Positions 17,841-48,649 of a stretch of DNA of 50,126 bases are shown here, piece by piece. Made by a program: the position numbers and the translations under genes. The notes below the pieces were generated by a model. The model was not told the DNA's origin. It ran no database searches and saw nothing but the letters and a program-made list of their open reading frames with translations. Positions within the stretch are counted from its first letter, which is position 1. Every line of letters starts with the position of its first letter. Origin of the DNA: Escherichia phage AugustePiccard; the sequence record MZ501051; one strand, written 5' to 3'.

Positions 17841-17884
17841 ATAGCACGAATTGCTAAACACCAACGCGACGGATGGCGTATAGT
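17839..17884 (+). promoter_or_regulatory. box promoter
   Basis: AAATAGCACGAATTGCTAAA, 22 nt, TATAGT, leader TTCATCGAAACGAGAGGAG. Confidence 0.6.
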
Positions 17885-22600: not shown

Positions 22601-23156
22601 AAGAGCCACGGCTGACACAGCTTTGTCTGCAAGGCTTGGTCAGAACGAGGCGGCACTAAACCAGAAGCTGGATGCTTTCTCTAATGCCACATCAACTGGC
22701 GTACAGTACGGAATTAGTCTTGGCCTGAAATACAACGGGCAGACTTATTCATCCGGTATGAGCATGGAGCTCGTTGGCACTGGTGGCAATGTTCGCAGTC
22801 AATTCATTTTTGACGCAAACAGATTCGCAATCAGTAACGGAATTGGTTCTGGTTCCGGTCAGTGGCAACTCCCCTTTGTTGTTGAGAATGGAAACGTAAT
22901 CATCCAAAGCGCAGTAATCGGTGATGGATCAATCAGTAACGCGAAGATTGGTAACTTCATTCAGTCCAATAACTACGTGGCAGGAAGCAGAGGTTGGAGG
23001 ATTGATAAGAGTGGTAATGCTGAGATCCGAGGAAAACTTTACGCCAACAGTGGTGAGTTCGCTTTTAACGGAACAAACAATACGGTACAGATTAACGGGA
23101 ACGGAATTACGGTAAACTTACCTGGAGGTGGTAGGGTTGTTGTAGGCACGTTTTAA
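19647..23156 (+). CDS. tail tip / host specificity protein (lambda gpJ-like central fibre)
   Basis: 1169 aa; block NPAWVLYDLVTNRRYGL is characteristic of the gpJ family; true start may be ATG 19686. Confidence 0.75.
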   Translation: MAQMIKTNMRLCDMAEEIKIYGAKGGSQKQHQPVEQEDNLISLNKVKVLLAVADGEVDPNFSMKDLYLADVPVQNQNGTYNYEGVRAEFRSGTQYQDYIAGLDGANSEIQASREITNDTPYIIAVNNTQLSAIRVKLFWPRLVKQESNGDLNGTTCEYAIDLSVNGGAYQEYTRGVANGKTTTGYDRSIRVNLPAEFDSALVRIRKITADSTSSTLVNGMQITTYQEVIDAKFRYPLTALVYVEFGSDLFPNGIPTISIKKRWKLIQVPTNYDPETRTYSGTWNGLFKMAWSNNPAWVLYDLVTNRRYGLDQRELGVEIDKWGLYEAAQFCDQMVPDGKGGMEPRYLCDMVVQNKVEAYTLIRDICSIFRGLTFYDGEKIGIVVDKPRNTSYIFTNDNVVNGLFSRTFASDKSLYTTANVQFDDVENNYQQDVEPVFELEATRRFGFNPVDLTAIGCTRRSEANRRGRWLLKTNLRSETISFTTGLEGMIPMIGEVIAVNDAAWSSNYQLNLSGRIESVQGLQVFTPFKVDAAPGDRILLNKPDGSPEARTIASVSEDGRTINLNTAFSFVAQPDTVFAIDKDNLALQQYVVTGIQKADSDGSDSFQYTITAVEYDPNKYDEIDYGVNIADRPTSIVEPDRLSPPENLTVSSYSKIVQGLSVETMVIGWDKAPYAKTYNVQWRKENGNWINVPRTASTEVDIEGIYAGIYDVRIRSVSDTENVSAWSGIVTKSLTGKIGKPPKLQVITASDDEVFGIRVKWGFADGSGDTAYTELQQVADNGDGTYNPDSASLLTLVPYPQYEYWHTPIQPGNVIWYRARIIDRIGNTSDWTDFVRGMSTDDAQKIAEYIKVDIEQSEGFKYLQQNAIDKNQDIQNQAEAIIENALANDSDVRRQSVKNGKFTASITESLQLIADEQQARVTQISQLEADFDGRVNSLNTELREVITTGDSALSRSIDDLRVEIDENISSQITNINTALVTEAEARATADTALSARLGQNEAALNQKLDAFSNATSTGVQYGISLGLKYNGQTYSSGMSMELVGTGGNVRSQFIFDANRFAISNGIGSGSGQWQLPFVVENGNVIIQSAVIGDGSISNAKIGNFIQSNNYVAGSRGWRIDKSGNAEIRGKLYANSGEFAFNGTNNTVQINGNGITVNLPGGGRVVVGTF

Positions 23157-24390: not shown

Positions 24391-24436
24391 ATAGTATCGC
24401 ATCCTTGCGATCAGTGTTTAGCAATTCGTGCTATTC
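24391..24436 (-). promoter_or_regulatory. box promoter for the Cor-like lipoprotein
   Basis: Minus strand: GAATAGCACGAATTGCTAAA, 22 nt, TACTAT, CCATCGAAACGAAACG; the box encodes the methyltransferase C-terminus N-S-T-N-C-stop. Confidence 0.6.
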
Positions 24437-25136: not shown

Positions 25137-25181
25137 ATTATACCGCGCAAAATTTATTGTTCTTTGGCAATTCGTGCCATA
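25137..25181 (-). promoter_or_regulatory. box promoter for the methyltransferase-like gene
   Basis: Minus strand: GGCACGAATTGCCAAAG, 22 nt, TATAAT, leader AACGAGAGGGG. Confidence 0.55.
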
Positions 25182-25670: not shown

Positions 25671-26348
25671 TTATACCACCTTATTTTCGATTTGCATTAC
25701 GTTATTAACTGCCAGCATAACATTTCGATTCTGCTGCTGCGTTGTAACTACAAAAGACTCCATCTTAATCCGATCTAAATCTTTTTCCGCACCCTCTCGG
25801 GTTAATTGCATTACCCGGTCATGGTTATATTTTTCCAATTCCGTCAACCCCACCTTATCTTCAAGCTTCCAGCAGTACACCTGCATTTCACTATATATTT
25901 TAGAGTTTACAGCCATTTGGCCTTGCATGCTATGAATGTGGTTATCTTTCTCTTTAATGATTTTCTCGTAATGTGCCACGATGTTTAGATTTCCAACAGC
26001 TTCGATCTTTGACTCAAGTTCATGAAGCCTTCGGATTACTTTATGGCGAAGTGCGACGCTGTATCCGGTGATTAGCGTTTCGGTAAGTTCCTTGTTAAGC
26101 AAAATCTCTGATGTATAGCCACGAACGTCAGTAAGTACTTGATAATCATCATGACTCAAATCTGAGTCATCGTTATAATGTAACAATTCATCGATCATTT
26201 CTTGAGCGTCCCTCACGACGTTGCCATGTCGCTTTCCGGTTAATTCGGCAACTTCCTTTGTGCTCATCATTGCTTTTGGTTGTTCTTTGTACACTTTAAT
26301 ATTCATTTTCATCTCTCTTCTGTTTTTCATGACCCAAATCTGGATCAT
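25671..26348 (-). CDS. Rha-family phage regulatory protein (antirepressor-like)
   Basis: N-terminal block MSTKEVAELTGKRHGNVVRDAQEMI matches the Rha domain signature; coiled-coil C-terminus; start codon uncertain. Confidence 0.55.
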   Translation of the reverse strand: MIQIWVMKNRREMKMNIKVYKEQPKAMMSTKEVAELTGKRHGNVVRDAQEMIDELLHYNDDSDLSHDDYQVLTDVRGYTSEILLNKELTETLITGYSVALRHKVIRRLHELESKIEAVGNLNIVAHYEKIIKEKDNHIHSMQGQMAVNSKIYSEMQVYCWKLEDKVGLTELEKYNHDRVMQLTREGAEKDLDRIKMESFVVTTQQQNRNVMLAVNNVMQIENKVV

Positions 26349-26408: not shown

Positions 26409-26455
26409 AATATAACTAAAGATACCCAGTTGTCTTTAGCAATTAGTGCTATTTA
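26409..26455 (-). promoter_or_regulatory. box promoter for the Rha gene
   Basis: Minus strand: AAATAGCACTAATTGCTAAA, 22 nt, TATATT. Confidence 0.5.
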
Positions 26456-28103: not shown

Positions 28104-28147
28104 ATAGCACGAATTGCTAAAGACAAAATTAACGAGTGGGGTATGAT
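28103..28147 (+). promoter_or_regulatory. box promoter upstream of erf
   Basis: AAATAGCACGAATTGCTAAA, 22 nt, TATGAT; box starts right after the exonuclease stop. Confidence 0.6.
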
Positions 28148-28956: not shown

Positions 28957-29364
28957 ATGCACGTAATTACTGGTAAGATTAGTCGCGCTCCGTTCACTAA
29001 AGAAGGCGCTAACGCTAACGGTAACTGGAAAATGTTCGCAGTTGATTTGAGTGAGCGATACAAGGATAAAGATGGGAAAACTCAGTACACCAACTACCGC
29101 GCTGTGCTTTTCGCTAAAGAGTCGATGCTAGATTGGTACAATGAGGCATTTCAAGAGGGTAAAGTTGTTAGCATTAGCGCAGAAAGCCTGGCTGTTGATG
29201 TTCGGGATAAAGATGGCAAGACTTACGTTACTGTCAATATGAATAATCCTAGGCTTGAGTTTAGTCAGCGTGGCGATTCACAACCACAGAAAAATAATAG
29301 ACAGCAGCAACAGCAGCATCCTCAGCAACAGCAGCAACAGTTCAATGACGACATTCCATTCTGA
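28957..29364 (+). CDS. ssb: single-stranded DNA-binding protein
   Basis: Gln-rich linker and canonical acidic C-terminal tail DDIPF. Confidence 0.7.
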   Translation: MHVITGKISRAPFTKEGANANGNWKMFAVDLSERYKDKDGKTQYTNYRAVLFAKESMLDWYNEAFQEGKVVSISAESLAVDVRDKDGKTYVTVNMNNPRLEFSQRGDSQPQKNNRQQQQQHPQQQQQQFNDDIPF

Positions 29365-29366
29365 TA

Positions 29367-29399
29367 ATAAAAAACCCCGCTTCGGCGGGGTTAGTTTTA
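29367..29399. terminator. bidirectional terminator between ssb and the tail fibre gene
   Basis: CCCCGC-TTCG-GCGGGG flanked by A6 and T-rich tract. Confidence 0.7.
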
Positions 29400-29404
29400 G
29401 ATGA

Positions 29405-31924
29405 TTACCCAGTTGCTCCAGTAACTATATTTTTCCATCCAGTCCCTGTCGCAAAAGCAATTAATCCAGTACCCGTACCAAACGATGCATTATTGTTAGT
29501 GCATGATTGATTTCCGGTGCGCTGGAGATTTGCAGCATCTACAGTTAAACCAAATCCATAGGCACGATAGTTGAAGCCACTTTTTGCATTTGATGGGATG
29601 AGCGAGTTACCATAGTTTATTGCACCGTAGATATCAACAATCCCTGCTGCGGTCGTTTCAATTGGATTTCCCGAAGTGGAAATAAGCGTTACGTTACTTG
29701 CCGTTACCATTCCTCCAGAATAAAACAGGGCAAGTTTTCCACTGTTCGCACCTGTAACATTACTCAGTATCACTCTTGGTGATGAGGCGTCTGCATTGGC
29801 AGCGAATTGCCTGAACAGATGGCCGTTAGAATAAACCATATCAGAAATGTTTATATTTTTTAACGTTCCTCCACGAATTTGGCAGAGTGTTGCCTCTGTT
29901 TTATGATCTACCGACCCTTTTATAGTTACGTTGTCAACAACACCTCTCGTAACCAGGCACAATGAACTGTACTGGTCACCACTTAACAAAGTATTTTTTG
30001 ACTTGATATTAACGTTAAGGATTCTTGACTTATCATTTCCAGATCCTTCACCACATGCGAATCCAAACTTAGAATTTCTTGGCGCATCCATGTCTAAGTT
30101 ATAGACTGTGACACCAACAGACCCCCTAACGTCAACAACAGGAGTTGATATATTAGTTAAGTTAGTGGATACGCCTTCCACTACCACTTGATCAGCAAAC
30201 ACCTCGCCCAGGCCACGGTCGTAAATTTCACACAGTGCATGGCCCGCTCCAGGAATAGCGGATATATCATCAAATATTGCATATTTAACCGTTGTTTTTG
30301 TTAGGTTATGATCAGCCCAAATTCTTACCGGAGCATGTTGGCAGGTGCCATGTATTCCCCGTACAGATACATGCTTAAACTCAACACCATCGTTACCTGC
30401 AAGCTTTACAGCACACAGAGTTGTGTCATTAAATAACCCTTCAACATCGATAAATGTGAAATTTCCTCGAGTCCCTAAGTCATATGATGCGTAATCTCCA
30501 CCGGTCATTGCGAATAAGTCGTCTCCGGTATGACCACGTAGATTCCTTACATACGCATGGTAGATGGGTGGTTGCAAGTGAAGACCATCAGAGTGATTGT
30601 CAAACTCAAGACCCTGAGCATCAAGGTAATCAATATTCGCTACAAGATAGGCATACTTGAACGCCCCACCAACTTTAAGTCCACCACCAAGTTTTAGCCT
30701 TTTAACACCAGCTATACAGATGGCATGGGTATTAAGCCCTCCTGGAGCAGTACCGGATTTGTTATAATTTATAATTCCACCACCACGAATTCCAAGATAA
30801 TCAGATTTTTTAGTCAGGTCCGAAGGGTTTGATATGGTATCAAACCAATACTCACTAATAAATAAAGGCATGTTTGTGCCTTCTACGTTTCTAATCTCTG
30901 TTCCTGCGTGAATCAATACATCCATATTGTTTTTTAGCAGTAAAGAACCATTTACCAACACAACTCCTTTGCAGTCAAAAACAAATTGAGAAATGAAAGA
31001 TTGTCCTCCTAGCGACGAAAATACCGAGTTAATCCTTGCAGTATTCTCTTCTGCCGTAGAAGATGGGGATACACCATAATCAGACATAAAATAAGTTTGC
31101 CCAACGCGCACATCCAAAGGCATAGGAACCCCAGGGCCATTTGGATTTGTGTATGTGACTAGTGACGAACCAGATCCAGAAGCTAAGTTAGCTCTTAATG
31201 ATGTATCACTAGCTCTAACCCATGCACCAGGACCAATACCACCAGATGATTCAGGAGTTGATCCAGCTGGAACAACCTTAGGTAACGTTCCTGACCAAAG
31301 GAACTGTACGGCATAACCATCAATGAATTGAATTATCACTTGGTTTTTTGACTGAAGAGTTACTCCATCATCAAAGTTACCAACCAGGGCTCCGGATACT
31401 GATTCAGCGGCACTCTGAGCGACGATTGCAGAATTGCTTGCAGATGACGCGGAACTAGAAGCTGAATCCTTGTCTGCTGATACCTGAGATGCATCAGATG
31501 ATACCTGAGAAGCAATAGTAACAATTTCTCCAAACTGTGTGTTAACTTGGTTTACATCAGTTGAGAATTTATCATGATCAAAATCCTTGAAAACATCAAC
31601 CGCCTCTGCAATCGCAGTTTCACGCGACTGATAGTGACGAAGTGTTTCCGCAACATCTTGAGCTAAACCCTGAACGGTAATTCCATCATGCGCAAGGATT
31701 GCGTAACCAGTACCAGCAGGAACGGTTTCAGAATTAGGGTTGTAAACATTAATCTGCGTATCGCTGATAATTTCTGAGATGGTGTAAATTTTTACTGGTT
31801 CAGTTTTGAAAACAATGGTAGCACCTACGCGAATCAGTGTAAGCGGTGCTTTCCATGTAGTTCCCACGCCGGTCACCTCGCCATTTGCGGATAACGACGC
31901 CGTTCCTAAGTCATAAATTGCCAT
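29405..31924 (-). CDS. tail fibre / tailspike-like protein
   Basis: About 840 aa; Ser-rich linker (SSDASQVSADKDSASSSASSASNS) and long Gly/Asn/Thr-rich body; start taken as MAIYDLGT (ATG 31924). Confidence 0.45.
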   Translation of the reverse strand: MAIYDLGTASLSANGEVTGVGTTWKAPLTLIRVGATIVFKTEPVKIYTISEIISDTQINVYNPNSETVPAGTGYAILAHDGITVQGLAQDVAETLRHYQSRETAIAEAVDVFKDFDHDKFSTDVNQVNTQFGEIVTIASQVSSDASQVSADKDSASSSASSASNSAIVAQSAAESVSGALVGNFDDGVTLQSKNQVIIQFIDGYAVQFLWSGTLPKVVPAGSTPESSGGIGPGAWVRASDTSLRANLASGSGSSLVTYTNPNGPGVPMPLDVRVGQTYFMSDYGVSPSSTAEENTARINSVFSSLGGQSFISQFVFDCKGVVLVNGSLLLKNNMDVLIHAGTEIRNVEGTNMPLFISEYWFDTISNPSDLTKKSDYLGIRGGGIINYNKSGTAPGGLNTHAICIAGVKRLKLGGGLKVGGAFKYAYLVANIDYLDAQGLEFDNHSDGLHLQPPIYHAYVRNLRGHTGDDLFAMTGGDYASYDLGTRGNFTFIDVEGLFNDTTLCAVKLAGNDGVEFKHVSVRGIHGTCQHAPVRIWADHNLTKTTVKYAIFDDISAIPGAGHALCEIYDRGLGEVFADQVVVEGVSTNLTNISTPVVDVRGSVGVTVYNLDMDAPRNSKFGFACGEGSGNDKSRILNVNIKSKNTLLSGDQYSSLCLVTRGVVDNVTIKGSVDHKTEATLCQIRGGTLKNINISDMVYSNGHLFRQFAANADASSPRVILSNVTGANSGKLALFYSGGMVTASNVTLISTSGNPIETTAAGIVDIYGAINYGNSLIPSNAKSGFNYRAYGFGLTVDAANLQRTGNQSCTNNNASFGTGTGLIAFATGTGWKNIVTGATG

Positions 31925-31947
31925 AATTTCAACTCCTATTTTTATTG

Positions 31948-31965
31948 ATAGCACGAATTGCTAAA
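31948..31965. promoter_or_regulatory. palindromic box copy upstream of the tail fibre gene (orientation ambiguous)
   Basis: ATAGCACGAATTGCTAAA only about 25 nt from ATG 31924, with no correctly spaced -10 on the gene side. Confidence 0.35.
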
Positions 31966-31988
31966 GTGGATTGTATCATCTTTAGGGC

Positions 31989-32012
31989 ATAAAAAAACCT
32001 CCCGAAGGAGGT
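31989..32012 (-). terminator. rho-independent terminator (minus strand)
   Basis: CCTCC-TTCG-GGAGG followed by T7 on the minus strand. Confidence 0.7.
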
Positions 32013-32935
32013 TAGTTTAGTAGTTCGCTTGCCTTATAGATTCTCTTTCTTATTCCTGACTTGAAAAAATTATCATCATTTGGCATTACCACATCAATAT
32101 TGCGATCGTCAGCAACGGCGAGTAAATCAAGATCGTGGCGAGTACAAGCGATGCGTAACTTGTATTTTCTAAGCGCGTAAGCAACCATTTCCATGTTGTA
32201 GATGGAGTAGCAAACAAGCACGCAGCGGTTGCCAGTAGCAATGTGAACACGATAGCCGTCAATGAGATTATCGACCAGATAAGCGTAATCATCATCCTTA
32301 AAGGAACCAATAACAGAAACAGATTGGCGAGTATAATCTTTTGCAGCATAACTAACACCTCCATATTCATTGATAAACATTACATTACACATTTCTTCTG
32401 ATATGCCGTCACTATAAGCCATAAAGCACGGCACTGCGTGTATTAGTTCGCCTGATTTTGTTCTGCCAACATCAAAGCCAAACTCGCTATAGATTCCCTC
32501 GTATGTACTGAGCGGAGTTGATTCTACTCTTTCAGTCCTTTCCATTATCTCTAAGCATCTTTCGTGGTCAATCTGAGCGCCCATTTTGTAGATCTGGGTT
32601 CTTGATGCTTGCTTGTTTGCTTTAACTATAACCTCAATTGGTGTTAAGTTCAGCCAGTCACCAAGCAAATTTACTGAATCGGCGAAGGACGATCCAGTGC
32701 ACTTCATGACCCATCCTATACCGGAGTCACTCCCGCATTTCGAACAAACTGCCGCGCCATTTCCTTTTTCACTGCCTATTTCGTCGGTAAATCTGAATCT
32801 GTCAGTGCCAAAGCAGTATGGGCATGGTCCGTGCTTCTTACTTAGGTGTCTATCATTCCAACCAAGTTCCTTTGCATAAAATGATTTCCACAATCCGGCC
32901 ATCTTAGGTATAACTTCATTCTTATCGTAATTCAT
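32012..32935 (-). CDS. DNA primase (zinc-ribbon type, putative)
   Basis: N-terminal zinc-ribbon HGPCPYCFGTDRFRF...CSKCG; position beside helicase and HNH. Confidence 0.5.
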   Translation of the reverse strand: MNYDKNEVIPKMAGLWKSFYAKELGWNDRHLSKKHGPCPYCFGTDRFRFTDEIGSEKGNGAAVCSKCGSDSGIGWVMKCTGSSFADSVNLLGDWLNLTPIEVIVKANKQASRTQIYKMGAQIDHERCLEIMERTERVESTPLSTYEGIYSEFGFDVGRTKSGELIHAVPCFMAYSDGISEEMCNVMFINEYGGVSYAAKDYTRQSVSVIGSFKDDDYAYLVDNLIDGYRVHIATGNRCVLVCYSIYNMEMVAYALRKYKLRIACTRHDLDLLAVADDRNIDVVMPNDDNFFKSGIRKRIYKASELLN

Positions 32936-33411
32936 TTGCTTAACCCGTGATTTTCGTGAAAGTTGTATTTTCTCTCTGCTTCAATTCTTACTTTATACGC
33001 CTGCTCTGGAGTATCGAAGTTCCCAAGGTGTAACTGCTTACCGTCAACCTTGATGTGAGCCTTAAATTTTCCGTGATTTAGCTTTGCCACTCCACAATAA
33101 CCAGTTGTTGATAAAACGCTAAGCCTGCAATTTCTTGAGTTACCTTGATTTGTTGTTACTCTTAGGTTTTCTATTCTGTTATCTAATTTGTTATGGTTTA
33201 TATGATCAATGTAGTCGCCATTTTGAAGTTCTCCATTAAACATCTCCCACACAACTCTATGTACGTAAGTCCTAAAGCCATTAACAGACACTTTGTAATA
33301 GCCAGATGTAGATAGTGAGTTGCACTCATCGCCAACCTTAACACGTCTTGCAGTGCTAATCTTCCAATGCAATTTGCCATCTACATAGTAAAAATAATCA
33401 TGCCAGTTCAT
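32932..33411 (-). CDS. HNH homing endonuclease with AP2-like domain (copy 2)
   Basis: Motif IDHINHNKLDNRIENLR; N-terminus MNWHDYFYY paralogous to copies 1 and 3; stop overlaps primase start (ATGA). Confidence 0.8.
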   Translation of the reverse strand: MNWHDYFYYVDGKLHWKISTARRVKVGDECNSLSTSGYYKVSVNGFRTYVHRVVWEMFNGELQNGDYIDHINHNKLDNRIENLRVTTNQGNSRNCRLSVLSTTGYCGVAKLNHGKFKAHIKVDGKQLHLGNFDTPEQAYKVRIEAERKYNFHENHGLSK

Positions 33412-33462: not shown

Positions 33463-33936
33463 TTAATCTTTAGCTTTTCGTGCTGCTTCGTTAGCTGCCT
33501 TAATCTTGCGCCACGATCGACACTCTGGCTTGGTGGCCAGTTCAGCCTCAGTTACCACACGCAGCATGTGACGTTTTTTGCAGCGTAGAGTTAGTGGTTT
33601 TCCGTTACCGTCGAATTGCAGGTCTGGTCTACAGAATGTGGCGCGAAAACCTTCTCCGGTTCGTTTGTAGTAGTTGTGCGACAGTTGAGCGCCACGTGCA
33701 GAAATCATACCACGCTTAAACCACTCTTCTACAGCCTGCGGCGTTACCTTTAACTGCTTTGCGATATTCGCCTTTGTGCCGAAGAAATCAAGAATCATCT
33801 CTAACCTTGCGCGTAACCCAGCCCTTACCTCATCTTTCAAAACGTAGTAACCTGAAGGTCGCTTTCGCTGCTTTTTATCTTCAGTGCGGATGGTTCCGTT
33901 ATTGCCGTTAATGGTTCGCTTGTCAATTGTACTCAT
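33463..33936 (-). CDS. HTH DNA-binding protein (putative transcriptional regulator)
   Basis: Helix-turn-helix-like segment TKANIAKQLKVTPQAVEEWFKRGMIS; basic protein; first gene of a leftward block. Confidence 0.5.
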   Translation of the reverse strand: MSTIDKRTINGNNGTIRTEDKKQRKRPSGYYVLKDEVRAGLRARLEMILDFFGTKANIAKQLKVTPQAVEEWFKRGMISARGAQLSHNYYKRTGEGFRATFCRPDLQFDGNGKPLTLRCKKRHMLRVVTEAELATKPECRSWRKIKAANEAARKAKD

Positions 33937-34037
33937 TTCATTACCTCGATAGCATTTTTTGTTAAAAGTCATTCTGATTTGATGGTAGTATTGTACTCAA
34001 TTAAACGCTACAAGACAATTTTTATAGGAATTTAGAT

Positions 34038-36032: not shown

Positions 36033-36448
36033 ACATAACAGATAAAGAAGATTACATTGAGTTTTACCCGGGCCCGGTTAAGTATTGCCCTAAAGAGGAT
36101 GACGAGCAAATCTTTTGCTCTGATTGGGTTAAGTATCATTACCCTCAGATTGTTTACTGGCACACGGTTAATGAATCGATGAAGACCATTGGACAGGCAA
36201 GAAAAGACCAGGCCAAAGGTTTGCTTAAGGGGGTTTCGGACTGCTTATTCCTGATACCTGAATCACTTCGTGGTAAATACCCTTTTGGAGCCATAGAGCT
36301 AAAAAGGGCCGGGAAGACGCAGGCGAGTCCAGTCAGCGACGAACAGAAGTCCTTCCTTAAGAGCGTCAGAGAATCGGGCGGCTTCGGGGCTGTAGCTTAC
36401 GGACGTGAGGGTTTTCTTGCGGCATTCAAAGAAATGATTTCAAAATAG
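36029..36448 (+). CDS. VRR-NUC domain nuclease
   Basis: Motif DCLFLIPE...GAIELKRAGK (D..E.K core); overlaps helicase stop (ATGA). Confidence 0.55.
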   Translation: MNITDKEDYIEFYPGPVKYCPKEDDEQIFCSDWVKYHYPQIVYWHTVNESMKTIGQARKDQAKGLLKGVSDCLFLIPESLRGKYPFGAIELKRAGKTQASPVSDEQKSFLKSVRESGGFGAVAYGREGFLAAFKEMISK

Positions 36449-36488
36449 CACGAATTGCTAAAGACGTTTCGGTGAGTTGGTGTATTAT
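36443..36488 (+). promoter_or_regulatory. box promoter
   Basis: AAATAGCACGAATTGCTAAA, 22 nt, TATTAT, leader TTCATCGAAACGAAACG; the TAG is the VRR-NUC stop. Confidence 0.6.
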
Positions 36489-43098: not shown

Positions 43099-43172
43099 TA
43101 TTTCTCTCCGTGCTGATTCTGAGCGGTCATTATATCAACGACCGCTTATAATTCATTATCAATTTTTGCTAT

Positions 43173-43560: not shown

Positions 43561-43607
43561 ATATACAGGAAAAGCCCCCGAAGGGCTTTATCAATTAGTG
43601 CTATTTC
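43561..43607 (-). promoter_or_regulatory. box promoter with terminator hairpin in the spacer
   Basis: Minus strand: AATAGCACTAATTGATAAA, 22-nt spacer holding hairpin AGCCCTTCGGGGGCT, TATATT, leader CATCTCATCGAAACGAAAT. Confidence 0.5.
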
Positions 43608-44823: not shown

Positions 44824-44870
44824 ACTATACCCTCAACAGCCGCGCTTGTCTTTAGCAAAAAGTGCTATTC
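44824..44870 (-). promoter_or_regulatory. box promoter for the leftward small-gene block
   Basis: Minus strand: GAATAGCACTTTTTGCTAAAG, about 23 nt, TATAGT, leader CATCAACAACGAGGG. Confidence 0.55.
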
Positions 44871-45945: not shown

Positions 45946-46469
45946 TGTTTGACTTTAACGAGGATAAACTGACAGAAGAGCAGGTAATTGAGATAGCCAA
46001 GCAAGATGGGCTGCCGCCGCTGCGAATTGCAATCAATGCTAACGGGTATCGACAGTCAACGGCGTTTTGGGGCTCGATTGATACCTCAGGGGTGTATAGT
46101 GGTGATGAGCTTGGTGTAATGATTAAAATCATCAGGAAAATGGGAGTTAACGGCAAAGGAGTTGTTGGCGTCAGGTCTCTATATGAAGGTGCTCGCAAGC
46201 TGAAACCATTTGCGGGGCGCGATGGGATGATGCTACTGATTAAGGATAAGCTAATTCCAGAGCTCGACAAGATGAATATCACGTGCCTCATTGGCGATAA
46301 GATTTACGTCAACCCTGCCTTGACGGATTTAAGCTGGCATCCTAACTTCAAAACTTACGAAGGTGAGCACGCTAGTAGACTACCATACCACTTGCGGTAC
46401 ACTGAGGAAGAGGTGGAGAAGGCTATTGAGTTCTATCGGAAAGCTAAATCACTAATTATCGCCAAATAG
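45945..46469 (+). CDS. truncated paralogue of the 527-aa protein (N- and C-terminal modules only)
   Basis: N-terminus MFDFNEDKLTEEQV...LPPLRIAINANGYRQS and the segment NGKGVVGVRSLYEGARKLKPF...NITCLIGDKIYVNP align to the termini of ORF 41515..43098. Confidence 0.6.
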   Translation: MFDFNEDKLTEEQVIEIAKQDGLPPLRIAINANGYRQSTAFWGSIDTSGVYSGDELGVMIKIIRKMGVNGKGVVGVRSLYEGARKLKPFAGRDGMMLLIKDKLIPELDKMNITCLIGDKIYVNPALTDLSWHPNFKTYEGEHASRLPYHLRYTEEEVEKAIEFYRKAKSLIIAK

Positions 46470-46509
46470 CACGAATTGCTAAACAATGGATCGGGTAGTC
46501 AGCTATGAT
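46464..46509 (+). promoter_or_regulatory. box promoter
   Basis: AAATAGCACGAATTGCTAAA, 22 nt, TATGAT, leader TTCATCGACAACAAAGAGG. Confidence 0.6.
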
Positions 46510-46533: not shown

Positions 46534-46746
46534 ATGAAGATGAAAAACGTTATTATTGAAGATATTCACTTTGACCAAGCTGAGGTAGGAATCGCAAAAA
46601 GCGTTCGCGGAAACGTTGTATATCTGAACTTCGATCCAGATAACTACGGGGACGGCCAGACACTGATGCAGTACAGTCCTGAGCAAGCACGCAAACTGGC
46701 GGCGGCGTTAATCATGGCAGCGGACGAGGCGGAGAAGCAGCGATAG
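46534..46746 (+). CDS. hypothetical small protein
   Basis: ATG after box promoter and leader (CATCGACAACAAAGAGGAA). Confidence 0.45.
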   Translation: MKMKNVIIEDIHFDQAEVGIAKSVRGNVVYLNFDPDNYGDGQTLMQYSPEQARKLAAALIMAADEAEKQR

Positions 46747-46786
46747 CACGAATTGTTAAAAAGGGATTCATCCTGACTGGTATAAT
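46743..46786 (+). promoter_or_regulatory. box promoter upstream of the long kinase leader
   Basis: ATAGCACGAATTGTTAAA, 22 nt, TATAAT. Confidence 0.6.
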
Positions 46787-47616: not shown

Positions 47617-47660
47617 ATAGCACGAATTGCTAAACCCGCTCCGGCGGGTTTTGTTATAGT
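47615..47660 (+). promoter_or_regulatory. box promoter with terminator-like hairpin in the spacer
   Basis: AAATAGCACGAATTGCTAAA, spacer CCCGCTCCGGCGGGTTTTG, TATAGT. Confidence 0.6.
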
Positions 47661-47908: not shown

Positions 47909-48042
47909 TTTACATCCACACGTACTACACTGGCAAGTTTAACAGTGTTAAGCACATTAGTGTTCACGATACGTACGATAGCGCAAAGGCTCAGTGGTTG
48001 GTTCTTGGCGGCGATATTAATTCATATAGAGTTGCTGAATAG
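47905..48042 (+). CDS. hypothetical small protein (45 aa)
   Basis: ATGA overlap with upstream stop; its stop TAG is part of the next box. Confidence 0.3.
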   Translation: MIYIHTYYTGKFNSVKHISVHDTYDSAKAQWLVLGGDINSYRVAE

Positions 48043-48082
48043 CACTAATTGATAAAACAGCATTGGGGTAATTTGCTATAGT
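48038..48082 (+). promoter_or_regulatory. box promoter (variant)
   Basis: ATAGCACTAATTGATAAA, 22 nt, TATAGT, leader CCCCATCGAAACGAGCGAGG. Confidence 0.55.
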
Positions 48083-48469: not shown

Positions 48470-48609
48470 GCTTCACTGAATATGTTATAGCATGTGAACG
48501 ACTGGTCTTTGATATGAAAACTTTCCACTGGTTCATAATTAAAGACTTAATAAAGCCTTACAAGCAGGGCGTTACCCCAGAGGCGTTTGTTAAGTCATTC
48601 TACAAATAG
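48466..48609 (+). CDS. hypothetical small protein (47 aa)
   Basis: Translationally coupled; its stop TAG is the TAG of the next box. Confidence 0.3.
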   Translation: MSFTEYVIACERLVFDMKTFHWFIIKDLIKPYKQGVTPEAFVKSFYK

Positions 48610-48649
48610 CACGAATTGCTAAACGAAGTCGCCACGGATGGCATATAAT
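48604..48649 (+). promoter_or_regulatory. box promoter
   Basis: AAATAGCACGAATTGCTAAA, 22 nt, TATAAT. Confidence 0.6.

Follow-up and report, generated by a model that had tools for sequence, protein, structure and literature searches.

Between the ssb and primase genes of Escherichia phage AugustePiccard (Bas01) lies a large minus-strand gene for a fibre- or tailspike-like protein, and its presence raises the questions of what this protein recognises, how the gene came to occupy a site in the replication region, and how it is expressed. The window analysed here is the complete genome of this phage (50,126 nt), an Rtp-like member of the Drexlerviridae (Braunvirinae) that shares approximately 85% nucleotide identity with phages Rtp, BEK2/3, JeanPiccard, and SU57. 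With good confidence, we regard the gene as encoding a T1-like lateral tail fibre that is in practice a tailspike and that would work as follows. A family anchor of about 125 amino acids (aa) and a Ser/Ala-rich helical stalk would fix a trimer to the tail tip. A Tail_spike_N adaptor would carry a right-handed beta-helix, which would bind and, most probably, hydrolyse a specific O-antigen polysaccharide. This O-antigen step would provide reversible first-stage adsorption, after which the tail tip would reach its terminal receptor, LptD. The fibre promoter would lie downstream of the primase terminator and be followed by an operator-like copy of the promoter box of this phage. The gene, its name, position, and modular variability have already been published for AugustePiccard and its family, so that the gene as such matters little as a finding; the new elements of this analysis, which are modest, are a predicted glycan target and a predicted operator-like box.

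The longest open reading frame at this locus (29405..31954, minus strand) encodes 849 aa from an upstream GTG. The true start, an ATG at 31924 located 8 nt past an AGGAG motif (31937..31933), gives a product of 839 aa from a coding sequence at 29405..31924 with its stop codon at 29405-29407; the start region is kept as ATGGCAATTTATGAC in five relatives. This product is 100% identical to the deposited 'lateral tail fiber protein' of Escherichia phage AugustePiccard (5.8 billion proteins searched) and matches PHROG tail fibre families (E = 4e-64), of which phrog_24092 covers aa 1-196. Ser, Gly, Asn, and Thr make up 35.4% of its residues. An initial annotation, made from the sequence alone, had described a minus-strand protein of about 840 aa rich in these residues and with a Ser-rich linker, and both features were recovered, the linker in residues 126-178. 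The span up to 31965 proposed there is right as to the gene but not as to its end coordinate, as it takes in the 5' untranslated region and the box, which are non-coding.

The key to the function of the protein is its distal part, aa 243-839 (29408..31198, minus strand), comprising a neck, a right-handed beta-helix, and a C-terminal cap, which together form a putative exchangeable receptor-binding or enzymatic module. From aa 243 onwards, the fibre shares 85-89% identity with 710-aa tailspikes that carry the P22 head-binding domain (PF09008), with an 810-aa protein that carries a T7 tail-fibre N-terminus (PF03906) and is encoded on contigs of about 40 kb, and with 688-aa and 931-aa proteins that possess other N-termini. 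The junction is at aa 243 in the AugustePiccard fibre and at aa 114 in the P22-like proteins. In Pfam scans, PF09008 was absent from the AugustePiccard fibre and present in homologues that share only the C-terminal module. Since the module is 85-89% identical behind unrelated N-termini, horizontal exchange is supported, and the stretch from aa 243 may be viewed as a cassette passed between siphoviruses, P22-like phages, and T7-like phages. The expectation of the initial annotation that the gene is a candidate for horizontal exchange thus applies to this distal module, which is also plausible as the host-range determinant proposed at that time.

The module was detected in 8 of 5426 complete Escherichia coli genomes, each time in a gene for a 'phage head-binding domain-containing protein'. 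In strain MS6192, this gene belongs to a P22-like prophage located beside intS at argW. The O-antigen locus of the same strain contains, in this order, galF, genes for glycosyltransferases (GT) of types GT2 and GT4, wzx, a putative wzy, genes for a GT and a further GT4, manC, manB, and gnd. Only 10 of the 5426 genomes have the wzx/wzy genes of MS6192, and these ten include seven of the eight module carriers (hypergeometric P = 3.5e-20; 8.6e-15 after two clonal pairs were collapsed). Carriers that share this O-locus are at least 99.8% identical in wzx/wzy. The carriers possess five distinct prophage tailspike alleles with 91-98% mutual identity, located at sites of three kinds (argW, a second integrase site, and bioA-ybhC), and originate from human, chicken, pig, and frog sources. 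The single exception, CFSAN064035, has a tailspike protein identical to that of MS6192, also beside intS at argW, but a different O-locus. The latter is of the rfbBDAC-wzx-glf type as opposed to the manB/manC type in MS6192, and the adjacent gnd and his genes are different alleles. Because an identical tailspike occupies the same site as in MS6192, the exception can be explained by an O-locus switch, the simplest reading being replacement of the O-locus by recombination after lysogeny.

The O-antigen of MS6192 and MS6193 (E. coli sequence type (ST) 101, NDM-1) was called 'novel, non-typeable' in published work. Judging from these genomic associations, this rare O-antigen is probably the target of the module. 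No O-group name could be verified for it from the ST410 Onovel1/OgN5 and OgN-RKI papers, and the PC-NDM34 paper gives no serotype. The names of the wzx/wzy clusters were uninformative on the O-group, save for members labelled Providencia rettgeri and Shigella boydii. Among the Drexlerviridae of the BASEL collection, only Bas07, and not Bas01, plates on K-12 with restored O16, and the terminal receptor of Bas01 is LptD (PMC8594841). The failure to plate on O16-restored K-12 is consistent with the predicted O-antigen specificity.

Several points weigh against this prediction. The Bas01 module shares no more than about 85% identity with the prophage tailspikes, and its specificity could therefore differ from theirs. 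The O-locus association is that of a prophage with its host, not of Bas01 with a host. Bas01 was isolated on rough K-12, so that the phage can do without the module under laboratory conditions. The limited identity, the different O-locus of CFSAN064035, the 74%-identity homologues in assemblies labelled Providencia rettgeri, and the fact that several carriers are clonal pairs would all suit a module that targets some other surface glycan, such as a capsule, colanic acid, enterobacterial common antigen, or a different O-type, the association then reflecting shared ancestry or ecology. We hold this to be unlikely, if well worth keeping in mind. Five alleles at three kinds of sites in varied hosts nevertheless accompany nearly invariant wzx/wzy genes, which are confined to the ten genomes; a switch of the O-locus after lysogeny accounts for CFSAN064035; and the wzy cluster, too, has a member labelled Providencia rettgeri. 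An O-antigen of the MS6192 type thus remains our preferred target. The prediction gives an otherwise orphan tailspike module a concrete, testable O-antigen by way of lysogen O-loci, which is modestly useful. If true, it would mean that a phage isolated on K-12 is pre-equipped for smooth strains of the MS6192 type. More broadly, the glycan targets of other orphan phage fibres could be assigned from the joint presence of prophage tailspikes and host O-loci.

A separate observation concerns the assemblies labelled Providencia rettgeri. They contain tailspike homologues 71-74% identical to the module, as well as a wzy fragment that falls in the same 90%-identity cluster as wzy of E. coli MS6192. 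This could indicate cross-genus sharing of both O-antigen and tailspike, or else mislabelled or contaminated assemblies.

The structure predicted for the module is a right-handed beta-helix at aa 270-836, modelled with a predicted local distance difference test score (pLDDT) above 90 as a long single-stranded helix body and closed by a C-terminal beta cap. The fold is closest to that of GH28 glycosidases. Together with the deposited name and the PHROG matches, this depolymerase-type fold bears out the initial view of a fibre- or tailspike-like gene. In GH28 enzymes, the catalytic Asp triad is provided by NTD and GDD motifs on adjacent coils. Conservation in the AugustePiccard fibre points to candidate active-site coils at aa 445-469 (30518..30592, minus strand), with the motifs S-D446-G-L-H and T-G-D468-D469. 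Residues D468, D469, D477, and D493 are invariant in 40 homologues (down to 31% identity), and D446 with the motif S-D-G-L-H-x-Q-P-P is at least 90% conserved in the same set. The spacing of 22 residues between D446 and D468 corresponds to one helix coil. D446 (SDG) and D468-D469 (TGDD) appear to resemble the NTD/GDD centre of GH28 and are candidate catalytic residues.

Neither the whole protein nor the helix core matched a glycosidase or lyase family in Pfam or NCBIfam, where only Tail_spike_N and a weak alanine-zipper were recognised. The GH28 family PF00295 gave no match at E <= 1 with the whole protein or at E <= 10 with the helix core. A profile search of PDB sequences with the alignment of the 40-member family matched in the Tail_spike_N region only and gave no hit to the beta-helix part and none to GH28 enzymes. 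The C-terminal Peptidase_S74/IMC domain of T5-type fibres was likewise not matched in Pfam or NCBIfam. With no glycosidase family matched by sequence, the assignment as a hydrolase is based on resemblance in fold and motif. The beta-helix might instead belong to a polysaccharide lyase or to a binding-only adhesin that recognises its glycan without hydrolysing it. We rate this as rather improbable and favour a glycan hydrolase.

The remaining N-terminal part of the protein appears to serve for attachment. The putative virion anchor, approximately aa 1-125 (31550..31924, minus strand), is the only part of the gene conserved at the DNA level among the Drexlerviridae. Residues 1-190 match the N-terminus of Webervirus depolymerases (PDB 7LZJ/7VYV/7VZ3; phmmer E = 1.8e-39). 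One of these, DpK2, possesses a triple-helix bundle at its N-terminus, and immunogold labelling placed it on appendages at the tail tip of phage RAD2 (PMC8552709). By analogy with this homologous anchor, the AugustePiccard fibre would be located at the tail tip. In the virion proteomics literature, the 'tail fiber' of Niu (2014) is a protein of 124 kDa, too large for the 839-aa product, and hence provides no direct evidence for the lateral fibre.

The anchor is followed by a Ser/Ala-rich helical stalk, approximately aa 126-177 (31394..31549, minus strand), which was delimited by composition (16 Ser and 10 Ala among the 53 residues 126-178), predicted helices at 123-155 and 162-175 (low monomer confidence), weak alanine-zipper matches in Pfam and NCBIfam, and alignment with the N-terminal region of DpK2. 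This stretch is probably a trimeric helix bundle. Next comes a Tail_spike_N domain (PF18668, TSP1/gp66 type) at approximately aa 178-240 (31205..31393, minus strand). It was assigned by Pfam at aa 175-239 (60.2 bits, cutoff 25; E = 2e-16) and modelled with a pLDDT of 80-91; PDB sequences matching this region are those of CBA120 TSP1/3/4 and G7C gp63.1.

As to the position of the gene, it is flanked by an ssb homologue (28957..29364, plus strand) and by the primase gene (32012..32935, minus strand; Zn_Ribbon_Prim), while 6.25 kb separate it from the end of the J-like tail tip gene at 23156. The initial annotation had correctly placed it between ssb and the primase, about 6 kb from the tail module, but had considered it displaced into the replication region. 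The order of exonuclease, Erf, and ssb (plus strand), fibre, primase, and regulator (minus strand), and helicase (plus strand) is identical in JeanPiccard, SU57, Rtp, BEK2, and ETEP102, and this synteny leads us to reject displacement. The fibre genes at this locus are JeanPiccard bas02_0034 ('lateral tail fiber protein'), SU57_00050 ('tail spike protein'), Rtp rtp50, and ETEP102_52; the Rtp annotations relate the fibre to T1 gp26, ssb to T1 gp27, and the primase to T1 gp24. The locus was described as fully syntenic in 13 Drexlerviridae, conservation within the fibre gene being confined to its 5' end (Maffei et al., 2021; S1C Fig, PMC8594841). Our comparison of related phages gave the same picture of a conserved slot and 5' end and a replaced distal part. 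Namely, Megablast matches to 54 phage records were limited to the first 330-610 nt of the gene, and for the distal 600-640 aa or so the best identity among deposited phages is 32%, with Enterobacter phages. None of the relatives inspected combines adjacent ssb and primase genes with a fibre gene in the tail module. Throughout the Drexlerviridae, the lateral tail fibre gene thus has a fixed place, flanked by ssb and the primase gene and opposite in strand to ssb.

A recent insertion of a displaced fibre gene into the replication module of AugustePiccard, for which one could cite its low GC content at third codon positions (0.29-0.32 vs. 0.40-0.52 in most other genes), its strand opposite to ssb, the terminators at both flanks, and a nearby HNH endonuclease gene, is highly improbable, as all relatives examined retain the locus, 5' end, upstream terminator, promoter, box, and ribosome-binding site, both by position and by sequence, the Rtp annotation extends the locus to T1 gp26, the locus has been published as fully syntenic, and replacement affects only the distal part of the gene.

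Two neighbouring reading frames were noted in passing. The genes for the primase and a Cro-like regulator are separated by a 159-aa HNH endonuclease gene (32932-33411, minus strand; PF13392, E = 3e-18). Its 3' end overlaps the primase start, its GC content is low (0.377), and JeanPiccard, SU57, and Rtp lack it at that position; it probably arose by insertion of a homing endonuclease. A 225-aa reading frame with a Rha-type phage regulatory domain (25671-26348, minus strand; PF09669) lies between the receptor-binding-protein locus and the recombination genes, and neither JeanPiccard nor SU57 has an annotated counterpart of such size there.

Across six phages, the 87 nt that precede the fibre gene show 88% conservation. 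An intrinsic terminator of the primase operon (31991..32013, minus strand; AACCTCC-TTCG-GGAGGTT followed by T7) overlaps the primase stop codon. Relatives differ from it only in the loop, and the SU57 and ETEP102 annotations list it as a terminator. This element is predicted to isolate the fibre gene from upstream transcription. A second terminator (29373..29392; 8 pairs, 6 of them G-C) is common to the convergent ssb and fibre genes. Of the bidirectional terminators initially supposed on both sides, this 3' element indeed scores on both strands, whereas the 5' element (32013..31991) was recognised in the terminator scan on the minus strand only. An extended -10 element, TGATACAAT (31970..31978, minus strand), can be read from the sequence; it conforms to TGnTAnAnT in all six aligned phages and has no -35. 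The fibre gene would accordingly possess its own transcription signals, in line with the separate regulation postulated at the outset, and we infer that it is transcribed as a unit of its own from this promoter.

Between the extended -10 element and the gene lies a 17-nt box, TTAGCAATTCGTGCTAT (31948..31964, minus strand), a palindrome of the form TAGCA-N5-TGCTA that is inverted relative to the fibre gene and invariant in five relatives. The distance from the box to the ATG is 23 nt. The earlier statement that a box lies about 25 nt from the start codon with no -10 on the gene side is right in both respects, although the conserved extended -10 upstream of the box had been missed. The window contains 16 copies of this box with up to 3 mismatches; 1.5 are expected for a related degenerate pattern. 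Fifteen of them read ATAGCACGAATTGCTAA toward the downstream gene and are followed 19-22 nt further on by a -10 hexamer (TATAGT, TATAAT, or TATGAT). They are located at 2713-2729, 17841-17857, 24418-24434, 25164-25180, 26436-26452, 28104-28120, 36445-36461, 43156-43172, 43588-43604, 44852-44868, 46466-46482, 46743-46759, 47617-47633, 48039-48055, and 48606-48622. Since the box centre is near -42, this arrangement suggests activator-dependent promoters rather than ordinary -35/-10 promoters. No published description of this family of 15 promoters was found.

The box of the fibre gene is the sole exception among the 16, being inverted and located immediately downstream of the extended -10, so as to span approximately +1 to +16 of the predicted transcription start. 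A normal promoter function of this box, for the fibre or an antisense transcript, was considered and rejected, as no -10 occurs at the spacing of 19-22 nt on either side. Its position is predicted to be operator-like. The Cro-like helix-turn-helix protein encoded two genes upstream (33463..33972) is a candidate binder. The operon of this regulator, the HNH endonuclease, and the primase has an apparent plain sigma-70-like promoter (TTGTCT-17-TACAAT; 33990-34018, minus strand), which lacks a box and is divergent from the helicase gene; besides the fibre gene, it is the only unit of the region without the usual arrangement of box plus -10. As the sole inverted operator-like copy, the fibre-gene box offers a modestly useful handle on the timing of fibre expression in T1-like phages.

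Two bolder readings may be added. In the first, the Bas01 tailspike is specific for the O-antigen of MS6192/MS6193 and a few animal isolates. In the second, the regulator that would switch on some 15 other promoters represses or times the expression of the fibre gene through the inverted box. We advance these readings tentatively, with slightly less than an even chance of being right. Besides the points raised above on the O-antigen target, the lack of a Pfam or NCBIfam glycosidase match, the low confidence at which the N-terminal 177 residues were modelled, and the nature of promoter and operator as sequence predictions weigh against our overall interpretation of the gene.

The closest parallel to the AugustePiccard gene is the lateral tail fibre locus of other Drexlerviridae. 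It shares the slot and strand, an N-terminal anchor of about 110-190 aa, the upstream terminator, promoter, box, and ribosome-binding site, and the proposed role as a first-stage O-antigen receptor-binding protein. In contrast, the distal 600 aa or so of the AugustePiccard fibre are unrelated at the DNA level to those of the relatives listed here, and in some relatives, such as BEK2, the locus is split into two genes. The Klebsiella depolymerases DpK2 (phage RAD2, 7LZJ) and Depo32 (phage GH-K3, 7VYV/7VZ3) come from the same phage family, have a homologous N-terminus of 190 aa, and follow the same plan of an anchor with a helical bundle, a central beta-helix, and a C-terminal domain. Their beta-helices, however, have no sequence similarity to that of the AugustePiccard fibre, and they degrade the Klebsiella K2 capsule, whereas the predicted target of the latter is an E. 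coli O-antigen; the AugustePiccard protein also has the additional Tail_spike_N domain. Tail_spike_N followed by a beta-helix is shared with TSP1, TSP3, and TSP4 of CBA120 (Kuttervirus) and with G7C gp63.1, which were the top Foldseek matches. In CBA120, a myovirus, this domain joins several tailspikes into a branched complex, while AugustePiccard would have a single tailspike attached via the Drexlerviridae anchor.

Among enzymes, the GH28 polygalacturonases and rhamnogalacturonases (3JUR, 5OLP, 1BHE, 1RMG) differ from the fibre in that identity is only 11-16%, the GHG motif is not evident in the AugustePiccard protein, and the expected substrate is not pectin. The endoglycosidases of HK620 and Sf6 belong to the same beta-helix fold class and share the expected recognition and cleavage of O-antigen; sequence similarity to the solved tailspikes of HK620, Sf6, and P22 is nil, with 9-12% identity in structural alignments. 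The P22-like tailspikes of E. coli prophages, such as WP_250113764.1 of MS6192, are about 85% identical to the fibre from aa 243 and differ in possessing the PF09008 head-binding domain, in place of which AugustePiccard has a siphovirus anchor.

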